Source of the DNA: a virus
Lineage: Duplodnaviria; Heunggongvirae; Uroviricota; Caudoviricetes
Reading direction: 5' to 3' (one strand)
Length of the DNA stretch: 9,066 nt
Virus record (IMG/VR): IMGVR_UViG_2582580966_000020
How positions within the stretch are numbered: the first letter of the stretch is position 1; every line of letters starts with the position of its first letter. Of the stretch, positions 4,363 through 8,298 are shown piece by piece. A model generated the notes under the pieces. That model made no database searches. It was given only the letters and a program-made list of their open reading frames with translations, and was not told the DNA's origin. A program made the translations under genes and the position numbers.

Positions 4363-4923
4363 TATCGCGTCCTCAACAATGAATTTTGTGATGCGGTGCC
4401 TGGTGCCTCCAGGTGACGTTAACCAGTTAACAATTAACGCCGGATACAGAGAATCCACCCATAACACTGTTTTTGGTTTTAACTGTTCCGCGTGCGCTCA
4501 GCCGCATTCACCACATCACAAAATTCACTTTAAAAAGGGCGGCAGAGCAGTCACGGAGTAAAACTGATACCGCCAAACGTCACCAGAAAATTGATAACAG
4601 AGGGCGTTGCAGCGGGGTTGTCACTTAAGCGTATGGTCAACCTGACAACTCGGTGTCCTCAACGGGGAAGAAATACCCCCGCCATACTTACCGCCGCGCC
4701 ATTTCGCGGATTGCCACAACCGGAAACGCACGGTCGACGAAAATTTAACGACAGGCTATCTATGAACCAGCTACCTCGCCGGGCGCTTTCGCGTTATGGT
4801 CTGACTTTTCAGGGAAATATCCTTTCAGTAAACTGTCAGTGCCGGATGCTCACCCGTGTCCGGCGCACGCACTCCACCTCACCCGTGGAGAACTCCTTAA
4901 TCACCAACCCTCAGGAGGGTGAA

Positions 4924-5199
4924 ATGTCGACTGAAAATGATGAAATCATTAACTCCCTGATACGCCAGATTAATAATTTTGATAAAGCATTGCAACATGC
5001 TGCGGCGCGTAGTGATATAACTCTTTTAGCAATTTCATTTCTTGCATCTGTTATGGATAAAAATGAAGTCGTACGACAGAGTCTTGTTGATTATATCGAC
5101 TCGCTTCAACCCGGCACTTTCAATCATGAGAGCTTCAATCATGAGAAAGAGCATGTTAAGTCTGTAATTAATTCTCTTATTTTGAATCAAAAGAATTAA
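4924..5199 (+). CDS. Hypothetical 91-aa protein, independently transcribed accessory (moron-like) gene on the strand opposite to the early-left operon
   Basis: ATG at 4924 preceded by AGGAGG (4912-4917) with 6-nt spacing. AT-rich coding sequence. Intrinsic terminator 26 bp after the stop. Protein MSTENDEIINSLIRQINNFDKALQHAAARSDITLLAISFLASVMDKNEVVRQSLVDYIDSLQPGTFNHESFNHEKEHVKSVINSLILNQKN has no family I can recognise. The ORF-track form 4591-5199 adds an Arg-rich GC-rich extension with no RBS. Confidence 0.6.
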   Translation: MSTENDEIINSLIRQINNFDKALQHAAARSDITLLAISFLASVMDKNEVVRQSLVDYIDSLQPGTFNHESFNHEKEHVKSVINSLILNQKN

Positions 5200-5509
5200 T
5201 GCTTTTTGTTGCAAAGTAATTTTCAAGGGGTTCTATTCGAATCCCTTTCTTTTTCATTAACAAGCCAAACCCCTTATCAATGATGTCCATTAGATCCAGG
5301 AAGTATTTTTCATGTAAATCCTGGTTATCAGAGAGCTGCTTCTCTTCGTACAGCCCGATAAAGGCTCGGCGTACGTTACCGGATATATTGTCGATGGTTT
5401 CTTTTTCTACGGTACTCAGGTCAAGAGTCGCCAGTTGAGAGCGAACCACATTCGATGCCATTTCCTGGAATGGTACTGGTAAATCTTTAAATTCCATCGT
5501 CAACCTCAT
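5177..5509 (-). CDS. Hypothetical 110-aa protein (early-left operon; AT-rich; 3' end overlaps the convergent plus-strand gene by 23 bp)
   Basis: ORF track 110 aa. Start ATG 5507-5509 overlaps the stop of the upstream gene (TGATG coupling). An alternative in-frame ATG at 5497 has GAGG 6 nt upstream. No recognisable family. Confidence 0.6.
   Translation of the reverse strand: MRLTMEFKDLPVPFQEMASNVVRSQLATLDLSTVEKETIDNISGNVRRAFIGLYEEKQLSDNQDLHEKYFLDLMDIIDKGFGLLMKKKGIRIEPLENYFATKSINSFDSK
5225..5254 (+). terminator. Rho-independent terminator for the plus-strand 91-aa gene
   Basis: AAGGGGTTC (5225-5233), loop TATTC, GAATCCCTT (5239-5247): 9-bp stem with one G-U pair, followed by TCTTTTTC. On the minus strand the hairpin is not followed by a U-tract, so it is directional. 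Confidence 0.5.
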
Positions 5510-5742
5510 CAGTCAGTGTTTCTGGTTAACCAGCGACGCGCGCCAGCTTCAGTTTTAAACGTTTTGCTTCTGGTATATGTCATCGCGGTAAACGTGCCGT
5601 CCTGGTTGGGAAACACGCCGCATACCAGAGATTCGTTGTTGCCAAGCTCGATAGTATCCATGCTGACCTCATTTCCCCTTAACGCCGGGGTAGCGGAACA
5701 AAAACCTGCTGCATAGTTATTAAAGTTGAACCCTGCCGTCAT
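5509..5742 (-). CDS. Small prophage protein, DUF1391-like (YdaF/YdfA-like core of about 50 aa from the internal Met at 5661), first gene downstream of PL
   Basis: C-terminal 50 aa (MDTIELGNNESLVCGVFPNQDGTFTAMTYTRSKTFKTEAGARRWLTRNTD) match my recollection of the E. coli Rac/Qin YdaF/YdfA small proteins. The internal ATG at 5659-5661 has GAGG 5 nt upstream. The ATG at 5742 (full 77-aa ORF) has GAGG 9 nt upstream. The true start is uncertain. Confidence 0.6.
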   Translation of the reverse strand: MTAGFNFNNYAAGFCSATPALRGNEVSMDTIELGNNESLVCGVFPNQDGTFTAMTYTRSKTFKTEAGARRWLTRNTD

Positions 5743-5979: not shown

Positions 5980-6456
5980 TTAAGTTCCTGTCTTGGTGAT
6001 GTTCTGGCTTTTCCGTTTTGATTCTTGATTTTTCAGATAGTTAGCTACCTTCATTTCCATTGCGGCAATGTAGGCGCGAACGTCATAATCAACCCAACTA
6101 GGCTCCGTAGCATTTCCAGATAAGATGAAAGCCACAATTGCTTTTTTTTCATCAGAGGCGGCTTGATAAAGGCTGTTTATGTCTAAAAGTTCACTTTTTG
6201 TATCTGAAGTGGATGGGGTTGGTATGGGGTATTCGTTAAGCCCCCAATGCTCTGGACCAACCACATCAGAAAAGAAACGCCATAGTTCTGGAAGTTTGTC
6301 TTTACTTATCGAACCTTTCTTAATCCAGTCATGGATTGATGGTGGTTGGACTTTGAAATGACGTGCGATTTCCGCCTTTGATTTGACGGCTCCTGATGCA
6401 ATTTTTTTGTTAATGGCCTGCTCTATCGCTCGGCCTAAGTCTTTACCACTAAGCAT
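5980..6456 (-). CDS. racR: Prophage repressor, RacR-like (CI-type immunity repressor), 158 aa
   Basis: ORF 158 aa with an HTH-like segment (SKAEIARHFKVQPPSIHDWIKKG). Flanked on both sides by operator clusters and divergent from the ydaS/ydaT genes, the arrangement of Rac racR-ydaS-ydaT. AGGAG lies about 9 nt upstream of the ATG at 6456. Confidence 0.85.
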   Translation of the reverse strand: MLSGKDLGRAIEQAINKKIASGAVKSKAEIARHFKVQPPSIHDWIKKGSISKDKLPELWRFFSDVVGPEHWGLNEYPIPTPSTSDTKSELLDINSLYQAASDEKKAIVAFILSGNATEPSWVDYDVRAYIAAMEMKVANYLKNQESKRKSQNITKTGT

Positions 6457-6580: not shown

Positions 6581-6904
6581 ATGAAAAAAGATAACTATTC
6601 ATTCAAACGAGCTTGTGCTGTTGTCGGTGGGCAATCAGCAATGGCTAGGCTTTTAGGTGTATCTCCTCCAAGCGTAAATCAATGGATCAAAGGTGTACGT
6701 CAGTTACCTGCTGAGAGATGTCCTGCGATTGAACGAGCAACAAAAGGTGGTGTCCTGTGTGAAGAACTTCGTCCTGATGTTGATTGGACATACTTACGAC
6801 GCTCGTCATGTTATTCGCAGAATATGTCGATGAAGCAACCAAATGACGAAAACGATCATACCCGAAGCATCAAGAGGCAAATGATTCATGAAAATCAAAC
6901 ATGA
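6581..6904 (+). CDS. ydaS: Cro-like HTH regulator, YdaS family
   Basis: MKKDNYSFKRACAVVGGQSAMARLLGVSPPSVNQWIKGVRQLPAERCPAIERAT matches the YdaS family as I recall it. ATG at 6581 has GGAG 8 nt upstream and lies just downstream of the predicted PR start. The ORF-track GTG at 6560 would sit at or before the transcription start. Confidence 0.85.
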   Translation: MKKDNYSFKRACAVVGGQSAMARLLGVSPPSVNQWIKGVRQLPAERCPAIERATKGGVLCEELRPDVDWTYLRRSSCYSQNMSMKQPNDENDHTRSIKRQMIHENQT

Positions 6905-7313
6905 GCACATCCGCATGGCGATGAATGCCTGGGCATACCCTGATGGTGAGAAAGTTCCTGCAGCTGAAATAGCCCGGACTTATTTCGAACTGGGGATGAC
7001 GTTCCCTGAACTGTACGACGACAGCCATCCGGAAGCCCTGGCCCGTAATACCCAGAAAATTTTCCGTTGGCTGGATAAAGACACCCCTGATGCTGTTGAA
7101 AAAATGCAGGCTCTGTTACCGGCGATCGAAAAGGCGATGCCGCCTTTGCTGGTGGCCCGTATGCGCAGCCACAGTTCTGAATATTACCGTGAGATCGTCG
7201 AACGGAGGGATCGGCTGGGGAAGGATGTCGATGATTTTGTTGCGTCAGCGGTTGTTTTGTATGACCAGATGAATCGCGGCGGCCCGGCAGGGAATGCTGT
7301 GGTGATGCACTAA
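6888..7313 (+). CDS. ydaT: YdaT-family protein (toxic partner of the RacR-controlled ydaS-ydaT pair), 141 aa, divergent
   Basis: Starts MKIKHEHI and ends VVMH, like K-12 YdaT as recalled, with similar length. Overlaps the ydaS 3' end by 17 bp. The middle of the protein differs from K-12. Confidence 0.75.
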   Translation: MKIKHEHIRMAMNAWAYPDGEKVPAAEIARTYFELGMTFPELYDDSHPEALARNTQKIFRWLDKDTPDAVEKMQALLPAIEKAMPPLLVARMRSHSSEYYREIVERRDRLGKDVDDFVASAVVLYDQMNRGGPAGNAVVMH

Positions 7314-7335: not shown

Positions 7336-8298
7336 ATGAGCAGCAAGCTTCATGGTCTTGTCTGGGAAGGGTGCGCCTTCACCGGCATGATCTTATCCAG
7401 GGTGGCGGTTATGGCCCGTCTTGCAGACTACAGCAATGACGAGGGCGTGTCATGGCCTGCCATTGAAACTATCCGGCGTCAGATCGGTGCAAGAAGTGAA
7501 TCCACAGTGAAATCGGCTATTGCAGAACTGGCGAAAGAGGGCTGGCTGACGAAGGAAGAGCGTAAGGTCGGTGGGCGTAATGTAAGCAATATCTATCGGC
7601 TTAATGTGGAAAAACTCGAAGCAGCTGCGGCGGCGGCGCGTGAGTCATATAAACCGAAAAGAAAAATTAGCCCGGCAAAAAATGACCCGTTAACAGTTGA
7701 CCCGTCAAATATTGACCCCTCAACGGTTGACCCGTCAAATTTTGATGGATCAACTGTTGATAAAAAACTGCCGATTAGGGGGGCGATGATTGACCCCGAT
7801 CCGTCAGTATTAAAACCTGATCCGTCAGATAAAAGATCTTCTTGTCCGGACGCTTCGCAACCGGACCCGCAGACGGCTGAACAGGATTTTTTAACCCGAC
7901 ACCCTGACGCGGTTGTGTTCAGTGCGAAAAAACGCCAGTGGGGAAGTCAGGAAGATTTGGTGTGCGCACAGTGGATCTGGGGACGAATCGTGAGTCTTTA
8001 CGAGCAGGCGGCCAGCGATGATGGCGAGATCACTAGACCGAAAGAACCCAACTGGACAGCATGGGCCAATGACGTTCGCACAATGCGGATGCTGGATGGC
8101 AGAACTCACAGACAAATTTGTGAAATGTTTGGGCGTCTCCAGCGGGATTCGTTCTGGGTAAAAAACATCATGAGTCCGGCAAAACTCCGGGAAAAATGGG
8201 ATGAACTGGTTATCCGCCTGGGGCGTTCGCCTGCGCAGCGTTGCGTGAATCACATTTCTGAACCGGACACTGAAATTCCGCCGGGCTTCAGGGGGTAA
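7336..8298 (+). CDS. Phage replication initiation / replisome organiser protein (O-like; N-terminal HTH, C-terminal DnaT-like domain), contains origin iterons
   Basis: N-terminal winged-HTH-like region (SWPAIETIRRQIGARSESTVKSAIAELAKEGWL). Central peptide repeats (VDPSNIDPSTVDPSNFDGSTVD) are encoded by tandem 15-bp iterons. C-terminal region is typical of DnaT-like replication proteins. Start is given at ATG 7336; the ORF-track GTG at 7321 is the alternative. Confidence 0.75.
   Translation: MSSKLHGLVWEGCAFTGMILSRVAVMARLADYSNDEGVSWPAIETIRRQIGARSESTVKSAIAELAKEGWLTKEERKVGGRNVSNIYRLNVEKLEAAAAAARESYKPKRKISPAKNDPLTVDPSNIDPSTVDPSNFDGSTVDKKLPIRGAMIDPDPSVLKPDPSDKRSSCPDASQPDPQTAEQDFLTRHPDAVVFSAKKRQWGSQEDLVCAQWIWGRIVSLYEQAASDDGEITRPKEPNWTAWANDVRTMRMLDGRTHRQICEMFGRLQRDSFWVKNIMSPAKLREKWDELVIRLGRSPAQRCVNHISEPDTEIPPGFRG
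7681..7770. repeat. Tandem 15-bp iterons (putative prophage origin of replication) inside the O-like gene
   Basis: GTTGACCCGTCAAAT at 7696-7710 and again at 7726-7740, with ATTGACCCCTCAACG between them and degenerate units on either side. Each unit has internal dyad symmetry (TTGAC...GTCAA). A further GATCCGTCAG repeat lies at 7797-7806 and 7819-7828. Confidence 0.6.

Follow-up and report, generated by a model that had tools for sequence, protein, structure and literature searches.

A small plus-strand gene in a hypervariable early-left slot of Rac/Qin-type lambdoid prophages is probably an accessory gene

A plus-strand gene within the minus-strand early-left operon

The window analysed here, a stretch of 9,066 nucleotides (IMG/VR record IMGVR_UViG_2582580966_000020), is a PPompW-type lambdoid prophage of E. 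coli with the gene order racR(−), DUF1391(−), 106-aa gene(−), 91-aa gene(+), DicF(−), dicB(−) and, further on, an exonuclease(−). The original prediction, made from the sequence alone, was that the 91-aa ORF is a plus-strand gene lying antisense within the early-left operon. Both the ORF list and the annotation agree, as all other annotated genes, from racR (5980–6456) to int (1–1131), are on the minus strand. RefSeq/PGAP makes the identical call (WP_000102678.1, “hypothetical protein”). The gene is placed between DicF sRNA/dicB and ydfA-like genes; its start lies 336 nt from DicF, which is transcribed in the opposite direction, and its 3′ end overlaps the convergent 106-aa gene tail-to-tail by 23 nt (Table 1). 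The predicted Shine-Dalgarno sequence and start codon are present, with a spacer of 5 nt rather than the 6 nt given originally. Neither the adjacency to DicF, nor the tail-to-tail overlap, nor the hypervariability of the slot behind a shared ribosome-binding site was part of the original prediction.

Table 1. Coordinates of features at the locus, numbered within the window
Feature	Position	Strand	Details
DicF sRNA	4537..4588	−	Rfam RF00039, 76.7 bits; conserved left flank of the slot
Sole candidate promoter	4806..4834	+	TTTTCA-N17-TAAACT; 8/12 matches; weak, uncertain
Two conserved hairpins	4841..4890	+	GCCGGAUGC...GUGUCCGGC and CUCCAC...GUGGAG; fold −33.4 kcal/mol, z = −2.7
Shine-Dalgarno sequence	4913..4918	+	AGGAGG; 5 nt (GTGAA) before ATG 4924
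91-aa ORF	4924..5199	+	ATG 4924, TAA 5197–5199, stop included; ORF list and PGAP annotation
15-bp tandem repeat inside the 91-aa ORF	5119..5148	+	2 copies (FNHES/FNHEK)
Convergent 106-aa early-left gene	5177..5497	−	phrog_6937, function unknown
Intrinsic-terminator-like hairpin and T-run	5225..5254	+	9-bp stem, 5-nt loop

The ORF is under purifying selection and is almost certainly a real coding gene. Compared with the 84%-identical MGFDV allele, it shows 43 differences (16% nucleotide divergence) and zero indels, with dN 0.121, dS 0.432 and an omega of 0.28. When those substitutions were placed at random in the ORF, a stop arose in 68% of placements, and just 0.6% of the stop-free placements gave an omega as low as the observed one. 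The 15-bp repeat is present in 1–3 copies depending on the allele, with the frame always kept (86, 91 or 96 aa). A spurious or decaying ORF, that is, a functionless chance frame in AT-rich inserted DNA, is consequently hard to credit: besides the selection and the survival of the frame, all of the ~50 IMG/VR copies hold an intact ORF of this type, the distant homologue described below is colinear, the Shine-Dalgarno sequence is strong, and an ATG-initiated ORF of at least 91 aa appeared in only 12/5000 shuffles of the region. What speaks for such a frame is that the family is an orphan confined to a narrow clade, together with differing start calls (91 or 145 aa) and frameshifts in some members.

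Gene callers differ on the start, and some PGAP runs give the 145-aa form. We rejected this form: its N-terminal extension falls inside the conserved dicF untranslated block, which is ORF-free in K-12, and the extension lacks a good Shine-Dalgarno sequence and does not stay in frame in the 77-aa allele. Some database members of the family are frameshifted.

An orphan family of Escherichia and Salmonella prophages

The 91-aa protein is acidic (pI 5.4) with no predicted transmembrane segment, and the original expectation that it has no transmembrane helix is borne out by hydropathy (maximum Kyte-Doolittle 19-residue score of 1.43, compared with 2.19 for Rac SieB). Single-sequence structure prediction reached a pLDDT of 62, and an AF2 model built from an 8-sequence alignment was all-helical, with three helices, at moderate confidence (pLDDT 68). 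Foldseek searches against PDB and BFVD returned helical bundles of a generic kind, ribosomal protein S20 among them (best E ~0.6), which we considered uninformative. Nothing was found by family scans against Pfam, PHROGs, PADLOC and NCBIfam, a profile search of PDB with the family gave zero matches, and PADLOC-DB 2.0 yielded just a BrxA fragment match (E = 0.014, 12.7 bits) that we did not count as a hit. Thus the profile searches and structure prediction that had been proposed as checks matched no known family or informative fold.

Relatives were sought at several depths. A word-indexed search of 5.8 billion proteins and a peptide-pattern scan of IMG/VR recovered close relatives only (all from E. 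coli in the former), while exhaustive phmmer against 1.84 billion representative proteins recovered the protein’s own cluster, along with a repetitive 1168-aa protein (E = 6e-5) judged to be non-specific. A colinear homologue of 92–93 aa (28% identity, pairwise E = 9e-6) is found in E. coli L037 and in Salmonella prophages; adding the 92-aa homologue to the profile gained only more E. coli and Salmonella hypothetical proteins, and no relative beyond Escherichia and Salmonella was found among the 1.84 billion representatives. By these searches, the 91-aa gene is an orphan family restricted to Escherichia and Salmonella prophages. The sequence searches likewise showed no parent of which it could be a truncated fragment, an outcome that would have counted against the original prediction. 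As tblastn of the 91- and 93-aa proteins found no match in 50,697 deposited phage genomes, the family may sit mostly in prophages that are seldom recovered as free phage. A literature search found no published work on the gene or its slot.

A hypervariable single-gene slot

An upstream block is common to ~100 related loci, and in these loci one Shine-Dalgarno sequence and ATG precedes at least five small ORF types (63, 73, 77 and 91–93 aa), four of the five acidic, between which hhalign detected no similarity. The dicF block itself is carried by ~4300 E. coli genomes. K-12 Qin keeps this block and ydfC but, past a clean boundary, has neither the Shine-Dalgarno sequence nor the plus-strand ORF nor the convergent gene. 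Given that ORF types with no detectable mutual similarity begin behind one ribosome-binding site and at one ATG, and that none of them is present in K-12 Qin, the locus is a hypervariable single-gene slot. Replacement is near ORF-precise, with cassette edges almost exactly at the start and stop codons, and in the family of the convergent 106-aa gene the N-terminal ~60 aa are conserved while the C-terminus varies with the cassette. The arrangement extends to Salmonella, where the plus-strand homologue has a DicF-like sRNA/YdaE/recET on one side and, on the other, a small minus-strand gene beside the repressor. The 91-aa gene is not tied to particular neighbouring modules: it co-occurs with RacR-, HTH- and LexA-type repressors and with DicB or Kil, and it was found at both the ompW and the tRNA-Ser/mtfA integration sites.

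The gene had been described as much more AT-rich than its flanks, and the G+C of 4924–5254 (0.344) is indeed far below that of the window (0.476), the left flank (0.545) and the right flank (0.441). Values this low occur in 0.4% of 331-nt windows, and the minimum of the whole window is at 4930. The horizontal acquisition suggested on this basis is supported by the foreign composition together with the absence of the gene from K-12 Qin, which keeps the dicF block, so we regard an acquisition or replacement as real.

Transcription signals

The predicted directional terminator past the stop codon was confirmed by folding both strands. The hairpin (AAGGGGTTC-TATTC-GAATCCCTT at 5225–5247, then TCTTTTTC) starts 26 nt past the stop of the ORF, in the 3′ portion of the coding sequence of the convergent gene. 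In the plus-strand orientation its folding energy is −16.3 kcal/mol (z = −2.9) and a U-run follows; on the minus strand a G-U pair becomes a C-A mismatch and the U-run is lacking, which makes the hairpin directional. Because the 1.4 kb scanned contained one terminator-like site, compared with a mean of 1.4 in shuffles, its significance rests on position and directionality and not on the count. The terminator was also seen in another of the related loci (L097). None follows the 77-aa allele, which is the commonest, or the 63-aa allele, and it is therefore no general feature of the slot.

Upstream of the ORF (4455–4923, plus strand), no sigma-70 site with at least 9/12 matches was found. The sole candidate promoter is invariant across loci, and Salmonella L102 has a counterpart at this position (TTTTCA-N18-TAAGCT, with TG in front), but its block also occurs in K-12 Qin, where the plus-strand gene is absent. 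If this promoter is real, the two hairpins downstream of it would form the 5′ leader of the 91-aa gene; they are conserved between E. coli and Salmonella, are present in K-12 Qin, and also fall within the long stretch that the leftward dicBF transcript leaves untranslated. We found no YdaT box (TTGATTN6AATCAA) upstream of the ORF, and the 7 matches in the whole window compare with 7.4 expected by chance. The original prediction went further, calling the gene independently transcribed and mainly lysogen-expressed, for which the sequence support stops at orientation and terminator. As promoter scans at strict and relaxed thresholds gave no convincing site, expression of the gene on its own in the lysogen is something we infer.

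Comparison with SieB and other known systems

The original prediction placed the gene at the position equivalent to sieB in Rac and lambda. For K-12 Rac this holds to the exact slot and orientation: the order there is racR(−), ydaG(−), ydaF/DUF1391(−), sieB(+), KilS sRNA(−), kilR(−) and, further on, recE(−). For lambda the equivalence is weaker, since lambda sieB is co-oriented with PL. Like the 91-aa gene, Rac sieB (K-12 b1353, PF14163) is a single plus-strand gene, it sits between a DicF/KilS-type sRNA with a division-inhibitor gene and the DUF1391 (ydaF/ydfA) genes beside racR, and it is convergent with the neighbouring early gene, whose 3′ end it overlaps. Judged by this gene order, the slot of the 91-aa gene is the one that holds sieB in K-12 Rac. 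The proteins themselves are dissimilar. As predicted, the 91-aa protein is not SieB and is the wrong size for it: it has no match to PF14163 (E ≤ 1), against which Rac SieB scores 109 bits, and BLASTP against Rac SieB gives E = 1.8. Rac SieB has 162 aa, a basic pI of 9.9 and hydrophobic segments, and the general description of SieB (membrane-associated, ~160–190 aa, with hydrophobic segments) does not fit the 91-aa protein. The ~120 nt upstream of Rac sieB also differ from those in the window, and the ribosome-binding site is not in common. The YdaT regulon paper makes no mention of sieB.

Morons, in the concept of Hendrix and colleagues, are autonomous promoter-gene-terminator units lying between operon genes of lambdoid phages. 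The 91-aa gene resembles them in being inserted relative to K-12 Qin and cleanly absent there, in its atypical base composition, in an orientation independent of the surrounding operon, and in its own terminator, though the 77- and 63-aa alleles lack one. It may differ in lacking a recognisable promoter of its own, the conserved 8/12 candidate at 4806–4834 being the only site found, and the slot is tidier than a classical moron, with boundaries at codon edges and a ribosome-binding site common to unrelated alleles. Lambda OOP RNA, which is short and non-coding, is convergent with cII and overlaps the 3′ end of that early gene. The likeness lies in a transcript, predicted for the slot, that stops at an intrinsic terminator located within the 3′ end of an early-operon gene, on its antisense strand; unlike OOP, the slot transcript would carry a conserved, selected ORF. 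Prophage defence hotspots, such as those of P2 and P4 (PMC9122126) or BstA next to the repressor locus (PMC8585504), share with the slot a fixed site near the immunity region where unrelated cargo is swapped between conserved flanks. The cargo of this slot, however, is a single ORF of 63–93 aa matching no PADLOC model.

Interpretation and alternatives

We consider the 91-aa ORF to be probably an accessory gene (moron) in a fixed hypervariable early-left slot of Rac/Qin-type (PPompW) lambdoid prophages. That it forms its own transcription unit, active in the lysogen, we rate at even chances or slightly better. As the gene faces the early-left operon, it would be expressible only during repression of that operon and from a promoter of its own; upon induction, colliding leftward transcription and antisense pairing would shut it off. 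Considering that the product is small, acidic and helical, with no predicted transmembrane segment or recognisable enzymatic domain, its likeliest mode of action would be to bind another protein and block it. The function we would prefer, given the sieB position and the rapid turnover of alleles, is protection of the lysogen from superinfecting phage (exclusion or abortive infection), the alternative being modulation of a host protein. Even so, an anti-phage function is tentative and on the doubtful side, and an exclusion or defence role is something we purely infer. Our best reading is of a lysogenic-conversion gene of the moron type, with superinfection exclusion possibly as its role.

Function could instead lie mainly at the RNA level, with rightward transcription, which would stop at the terminator within the convergent gene, acting as an antisense or interference brake on leaky leftward dicF-dicB transcription, much as lambda OOP RNA acts on cII, and the protein being secondary. 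The convergent geometry suits this, as the rightward transcript would be complementary, over its 3′ end (5177–5254), to the final ~78 nt of the early gene; one protein sequence can stand in for another in the slot; and the slot is directly upstream, operon-wise, of DicF and dicB, both of which are toxic when expressed (PMC5069750). We nevertheless think it unlikely, as purifying selection on the amino acids argues that the protein matters, all alleles have a near-consensus Shine-Dalgarno sequence, a 28%-identical homologue has kept the same length, the commonest allele has no terminator, and dicBF of K-12 Qin is silent without the cassette (PMC5069750). Similarly improbable is a matched two-gene module in which the plus-strand protein is the counterpart of the convergent gene’s variable C-terminal part, whether as a lysogen effector neutralised at induction by the prophage’s own early protein (self-immunity) or as a toxin/antitoxin-like pair. 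Both genes are gone together in K-12 Qin, swaps among the 77-, 91- and 63-aa cassettes also change the C-terminus of the partner while its N-terminal ~60 aa stay, and the overlap is exactly 23 nt in three sequence-unrelated cassette types, with all overlaps equal to 2 mod 3. However, the partners do not strictly co-occur: L097 combines a window-type partner with an unrelated 73-aa plus-strand gene, and the 92–93-aa homologues (L037, Salmonella) are partnered with an unrelated 67–71-aa gene. The linkage could also simply follow from the genes overlapping physically and from recombination having its break-points in the closest stretch of conserved sequence, and neither protein has a toxin or antitoxin match in Pfam, NCBIfam or PADLOC.

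Lambda has CII-dependent antisense promoters, and phage-encoded inhibitors are typically small, acidic and helical. The gene could thus encode an early or establishment-phase protein (an anti-defence or host-takeover inhibitor) made from an activator-dependent promoter and not constitutively in the lysogen. The character of the 91-aa protein fits, no constitutive-looking promoter was found, and the prophage encodes the CII-equivalent activator YdaT, with a near-consensus YdaT box at 6881–6898 (PMC9986795). We judge this quite improbable, since the sequence upstream of the ORF has nothing resembling a YdaT box, the matches across the window are at chance level, and an orientation against the early operon makes lytic expression inefficient.

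One might suppose, with little confidence, that the sieB position is a dedicated single-ORF expression slot for dissimilar, fast-turnover and so far unrecognised small anti-phage effectors made in the lysogen, of which SieB would be the known large example. Each effector would perhaps be paired with the variable C-terminus of the convergent gene as an off-switch at prophage induction, the 23-nt overlap being the trace of that pairing.

If lysogens produce the protein and it stops other phages, it would bring in a family of exclusion proteins, very small and without enzymatic activity, that escape current defence-finding pipelines (no PADLOC, Pfam or PHROG match), and the sieB position of Rac/Qin-like prophages would be a general cargo slot. 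Being directly upstream in the same operon, the slot could also influence how tightly the toxic division inhibitors dicF/dicB are silenced. Should the gene prove silent or phenotype-free, it would be one more orphan prophage ORF. Among complete E. coli genomes, the 91-aa allele is carried by ~4% and the 77-aa allele by ~12%.

Signals of a lone plus-strand gene

The window belongs to an E. coli lambdoid prophage of the PPompW type, integrated next to ompW, and from racR leftward to int its sole annotated plus-strand gene is the 91-aa gene, opposed to the minus-strand early-left genes as the original prediction had it. RefSeq carries it as a hypothetical protein (WP_000102678.1). The AT-richness that had been noted is also evident (G+C 0.344 at 4924-5254, the lowest stretch, vs 0.476 for the window), and shuffles of the region gave an ATG-initiated ORF of such length in only 12/5000 cases. 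The Shine-Dalgarno (SD) spacer measures 5 nt rather than the 6 nt first given. On the plus strand, the hairpin past the stop codon folds at -16.3 kcal/mol (z = -2.9) and is followed by a U-run; it is directional, as claimed, because the minus-strand stem is weaker (G-U becomes C-A) and has no U-run. It was the one terminator-like match in the 1.4 kb scanned, a number not above shuffle level, and the weight of the call comes from position and directionality. The element falls within the coding sequence of the convergent 106-aa gene; among the alleles found at this site, it accompanies the 91-aa and 73-aa ORFs and is absent after the 77-aa and 63-aa ORFs.

No sigma-70-like site with at least 9/12 matches was found on the plus strand at 4455-4923, and a relaxed scan yielded the candidate listed in the table. 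At the matching place, Salmonella has TTTTCA-N18-TAAGCT with TG upstream, inside an otherwise variable patch. The candidate is invariant across E. coli loci, yet it is part of a block that K-12 Qin has without any plus-strand gene. Should the candidate be genuine, two conserved hairpins would lie in the leader (4841-4923), and the strand they serve is undecidable from sequence because their stems are perfectly Watson-Crick. The proposal that the gene is independently transcribed and lysogen-expressed would draw on its orientation, strong SD and terminator, with the promoter as a candidate.

Features of the 91-aa gene and its surroundings (window positions unless a locus is named)
Feature	Position	Strand	Remarks
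racR	5980-6456	-	
DUF1391/ydfA-like gene	5509-5742 (ORF); 5509-5661 (PGAP)	-	
106-aa gene	5177-5497	-	function unknown; phrog_6937
Terminator-like hairpin	5225-5247	+	9-bp stem, 5-nt loop; 26 nt past stop; then TCTTTTTC
15-bp tandem repeat (FNHES/FNHEK)	5119-5148		within 91-aa ORF
91-aa ORF	ATG 4924 to TAA 5197-5199	+	ORF reading
Shine-Dalgarno AGGAGG	4913-4918	+	before ATG 4924
Candidate promoter TTTTCA-N17-TAAACT	4806-4834	+	relaxed scan, 8/12 matches
145-aa reading	4762-5199; L106 6839-7276; L108 6823-7260		reaches into conserved dicF untranslated block
DicF sRNA, canonical	4537-4588	-	Rfam 76.7 bits
dicB, DUF1482 gene, 823-aa exonuclease, xis, int	further left	-	

Evidence for a coding gene

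A diverged version of the ORF, the MGFDV allele, is 76-79% identical in amino acids and differs at 43/273 nt with no indel and an intact frame (dN = 0.121, dS = 0.432, omega = 0.28). When the same substitutions were placed at random, 68% of trials created a stop, and only 0.6% of the stop-free trials reached an omega as low. The tandem repeat occurs in 1, 2 or 3 copies by strain, giving 86-, 91- and 96-aa proteins with the frame always kept. At the same position, another E. coli prophage (L037) encodes a 92-aa protein that is 28% identical end to end over 86 residues (pairwise E = 9e-6), and a profile built from the 91-aa and 92-aa families retrieves 93-aa Salmonella proteins. These comparisons indicate with high probability that the ORF is a real gene. 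PGAP places its start inconsistently between genomes, at 91 aa or 145 aa (WP_001351093.1, WP_001317923.1). The 145-aa reading was rejected, as its N-terminal extension lies in a non-coding block also present in K-12 and loses the frame in other alleles.

The protein is acidic (pI 5.4); of the five small slot alleles, four are acidic. AlphaFold models it with three or four helices, moderately confident at pLDDT 62 (single-sequence input) and 68 (eight sequences). Fold searches of the model against PDB and BFVD returned only generic helical bundles (E >= 0.6), and a PDB sequence profile search gave no match. Relatives outside Escherichia and Salmonella were found neither in a word-indexed search of 5.8 billion proteins, nor by exhaustive HMMER on 1.84 billion representatives, nor in IMG/VR. 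Family-conserved residues include R29, D31, L34, S38, R51, I58, N67, E74, K75 and H77.

An ORF-precise hypervariable slot

The ORF is flanked on its left by ~330 nt that form the "long untranslated region containing dicF" of the dicBF operon (PMC5069750), a block present in 4322/5426 complete E. coli genomes. We compared 94 IMG/VR stretches containing its last 39 nt, AGGAGG included, plus other loci in hand. One SD and ATG are common to these loci and are followed by differing ORFs, of 77 aa (~43 loci), 91 aa (~50, window type and MGFDV variant), 92 aa (1), 63 aa (2) and 73 aa (1). Outside the 91/92/93-aa family, no similarity between types was detectable, and no type matched Pfam. Variation begins at the start codon on the left; on the right, in L097, it ends at the stop of what was once a 91-aa ORF. 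K-12 Qin keeps the dicF block, which joins ydfC cleanly there; the SD, the plus-strand ORF and the convergent gene are all missing. The position is therefore, across these loci, an ORF-precise hypervariable slot with one shared ribosome-binding site, which is our main new result.

Among complete E. coli genomes, 199 have the 91-aa allele and 650 the 77-aa allele. Repressors found alongside the 91-aa gene are of RacR, HTH or LexA type; the gene accompanies DicB or Kil, and the prophages that carry it are integrated at ompW or tRNA-Ser/mtfA. It is thus independent of other phage modules. By tblastn, the 91-aa and 93-aa proteins had no match in 50,697 deposited phage genomes, against those 199 genomes and ~50 IMG/VR prophage contigs. 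Evi and PPompW are examples of isolated or induced phages that carry the 77-aa allele.

The convergent gene

The 91-aa ORF and the 106-aa gene overlap tail to tail by 23 nt (5177-5199). Three cassette types unrelated in sequence have an overlap of exactly 23 nt, and others have 32, 11 or 41 nt; all values are 2 mod 3 (window, slot loci L005, L050, L010, L097 and L037, and Salmonella L102), with no sequence motif common to them. The convergent family (MEFKDLP...; also L005 3035-3442 and L050) conserves ~60 N-terminal residues, and its C-terminal extension takes at least three different forms, for total lengths of 106-110, 124-135 or 201 aa. It matches PHROGs 6937, 1363, 2151 and 9419 through the N-terminus only, with no known function.

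Comparison with sieB and Salmonella

K-12 Rac reads racR(-), ydaG(-), ydaF/DUF1391(-), sieB(+), KilS sRNA(-), kilR(-), ydaE ... recE(-), an order that matches the window gene for gene, with sieB standing where the 91-aa gene does and pointing the same way. In Salmonella (L102-L104) the homologue likewise lies on the plus strand. A DicF-like sRNA is ~220 nt away; YdaE/recET are on one side of the homologue, and on the other is a small minus-strand gene next to the repressor, with which the homologue shares a 41-nt overlap. The positional analogy to sieB in the original prediction is therefore correct for Rac, and the protein is, as it also stated, unlike SieB. It was rejected as a SieB (no PF14163 match, BLASTP E = 1.8): SieB is basic and hydrophobic, whereas the 91-aa protein is acidic with no predicted transmembrane segment.

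The DicF-like sequence in Salmonella L102 (5734-5782, minus strand; 36 bits, E = 6e-6, under the Rfam gathering score) has the same relative position as DicF in the window. Escherichia and Salmonella prophages share about 130 nt of the adjacent untranslated block, two hairpins among them. In K-12 Rac (L105 7406-7503, minus strand, and 7672-8160, plus strand), KilS and the region upstream of sieB are homologous to the Salmonella DicF-like block. This sequence similarity suggests a single, diverged untranslated-region family, made up of the DicF and KilS regions, that flanks the same slot.

Possible roles of the 91-aa gene

The reading with most support is that of a moron-type accessory gene occupying the sieB slot. 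Its protein, probably a small binding protein, would be made while the early-left operon is silent, and induction would shut the gene off through converging transcription and RNA duplex formation. Prophage defence hotspots (PMC9122126, PMC8585504) show fast swapping of dissimilar cargo at a fixed site by the immunity region; because the slot has this pattern, we tentatively prefer superinfection exclusion as a possible function.

Alternatively, the plus-strand protein and the variable C-terminus of the convergent gene could be a cognate pair, considering that both genes are absent together in Qin, that ORF and C-terminus are replaced together and that the 23-nt overlap recurs in three unrelated cassette types; however, L097, L037 and Salmonella break these pairings. 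An antisense or interference role like that of OOP, directed at the operon leading into toxic dicF/dicB, would sit poorly with selection on the protein sequence, and an activator-dependent establishment or anti-defence protein with the lack of a YdaT box upstream of the ORF. That the ORF is spurious is opposed by its omega of 0.28, the in-frame repeats and the end-to-end 28% homologue.

Accessory genes that face the early operon from the sieB position are a known kind, and this one was already annotated as hypothetical. New are the uncharacterised orphan family and the recognition of the slot; we found no literature on either. The gene is a cheap, well-defined candidate for tests of phage exclusion, its function being putative.

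Elsewhere in the window, an inverted repeat (ATGATTCATGAAAATCAA, 6881-6898) is one base off the YdaT operator as published, TTGATTN6AATCAA (PMC9986795). The repeat spans the start codon of a ydaT-like gene (6888-7313), much as the CII site of lambda PRE lies within cII.
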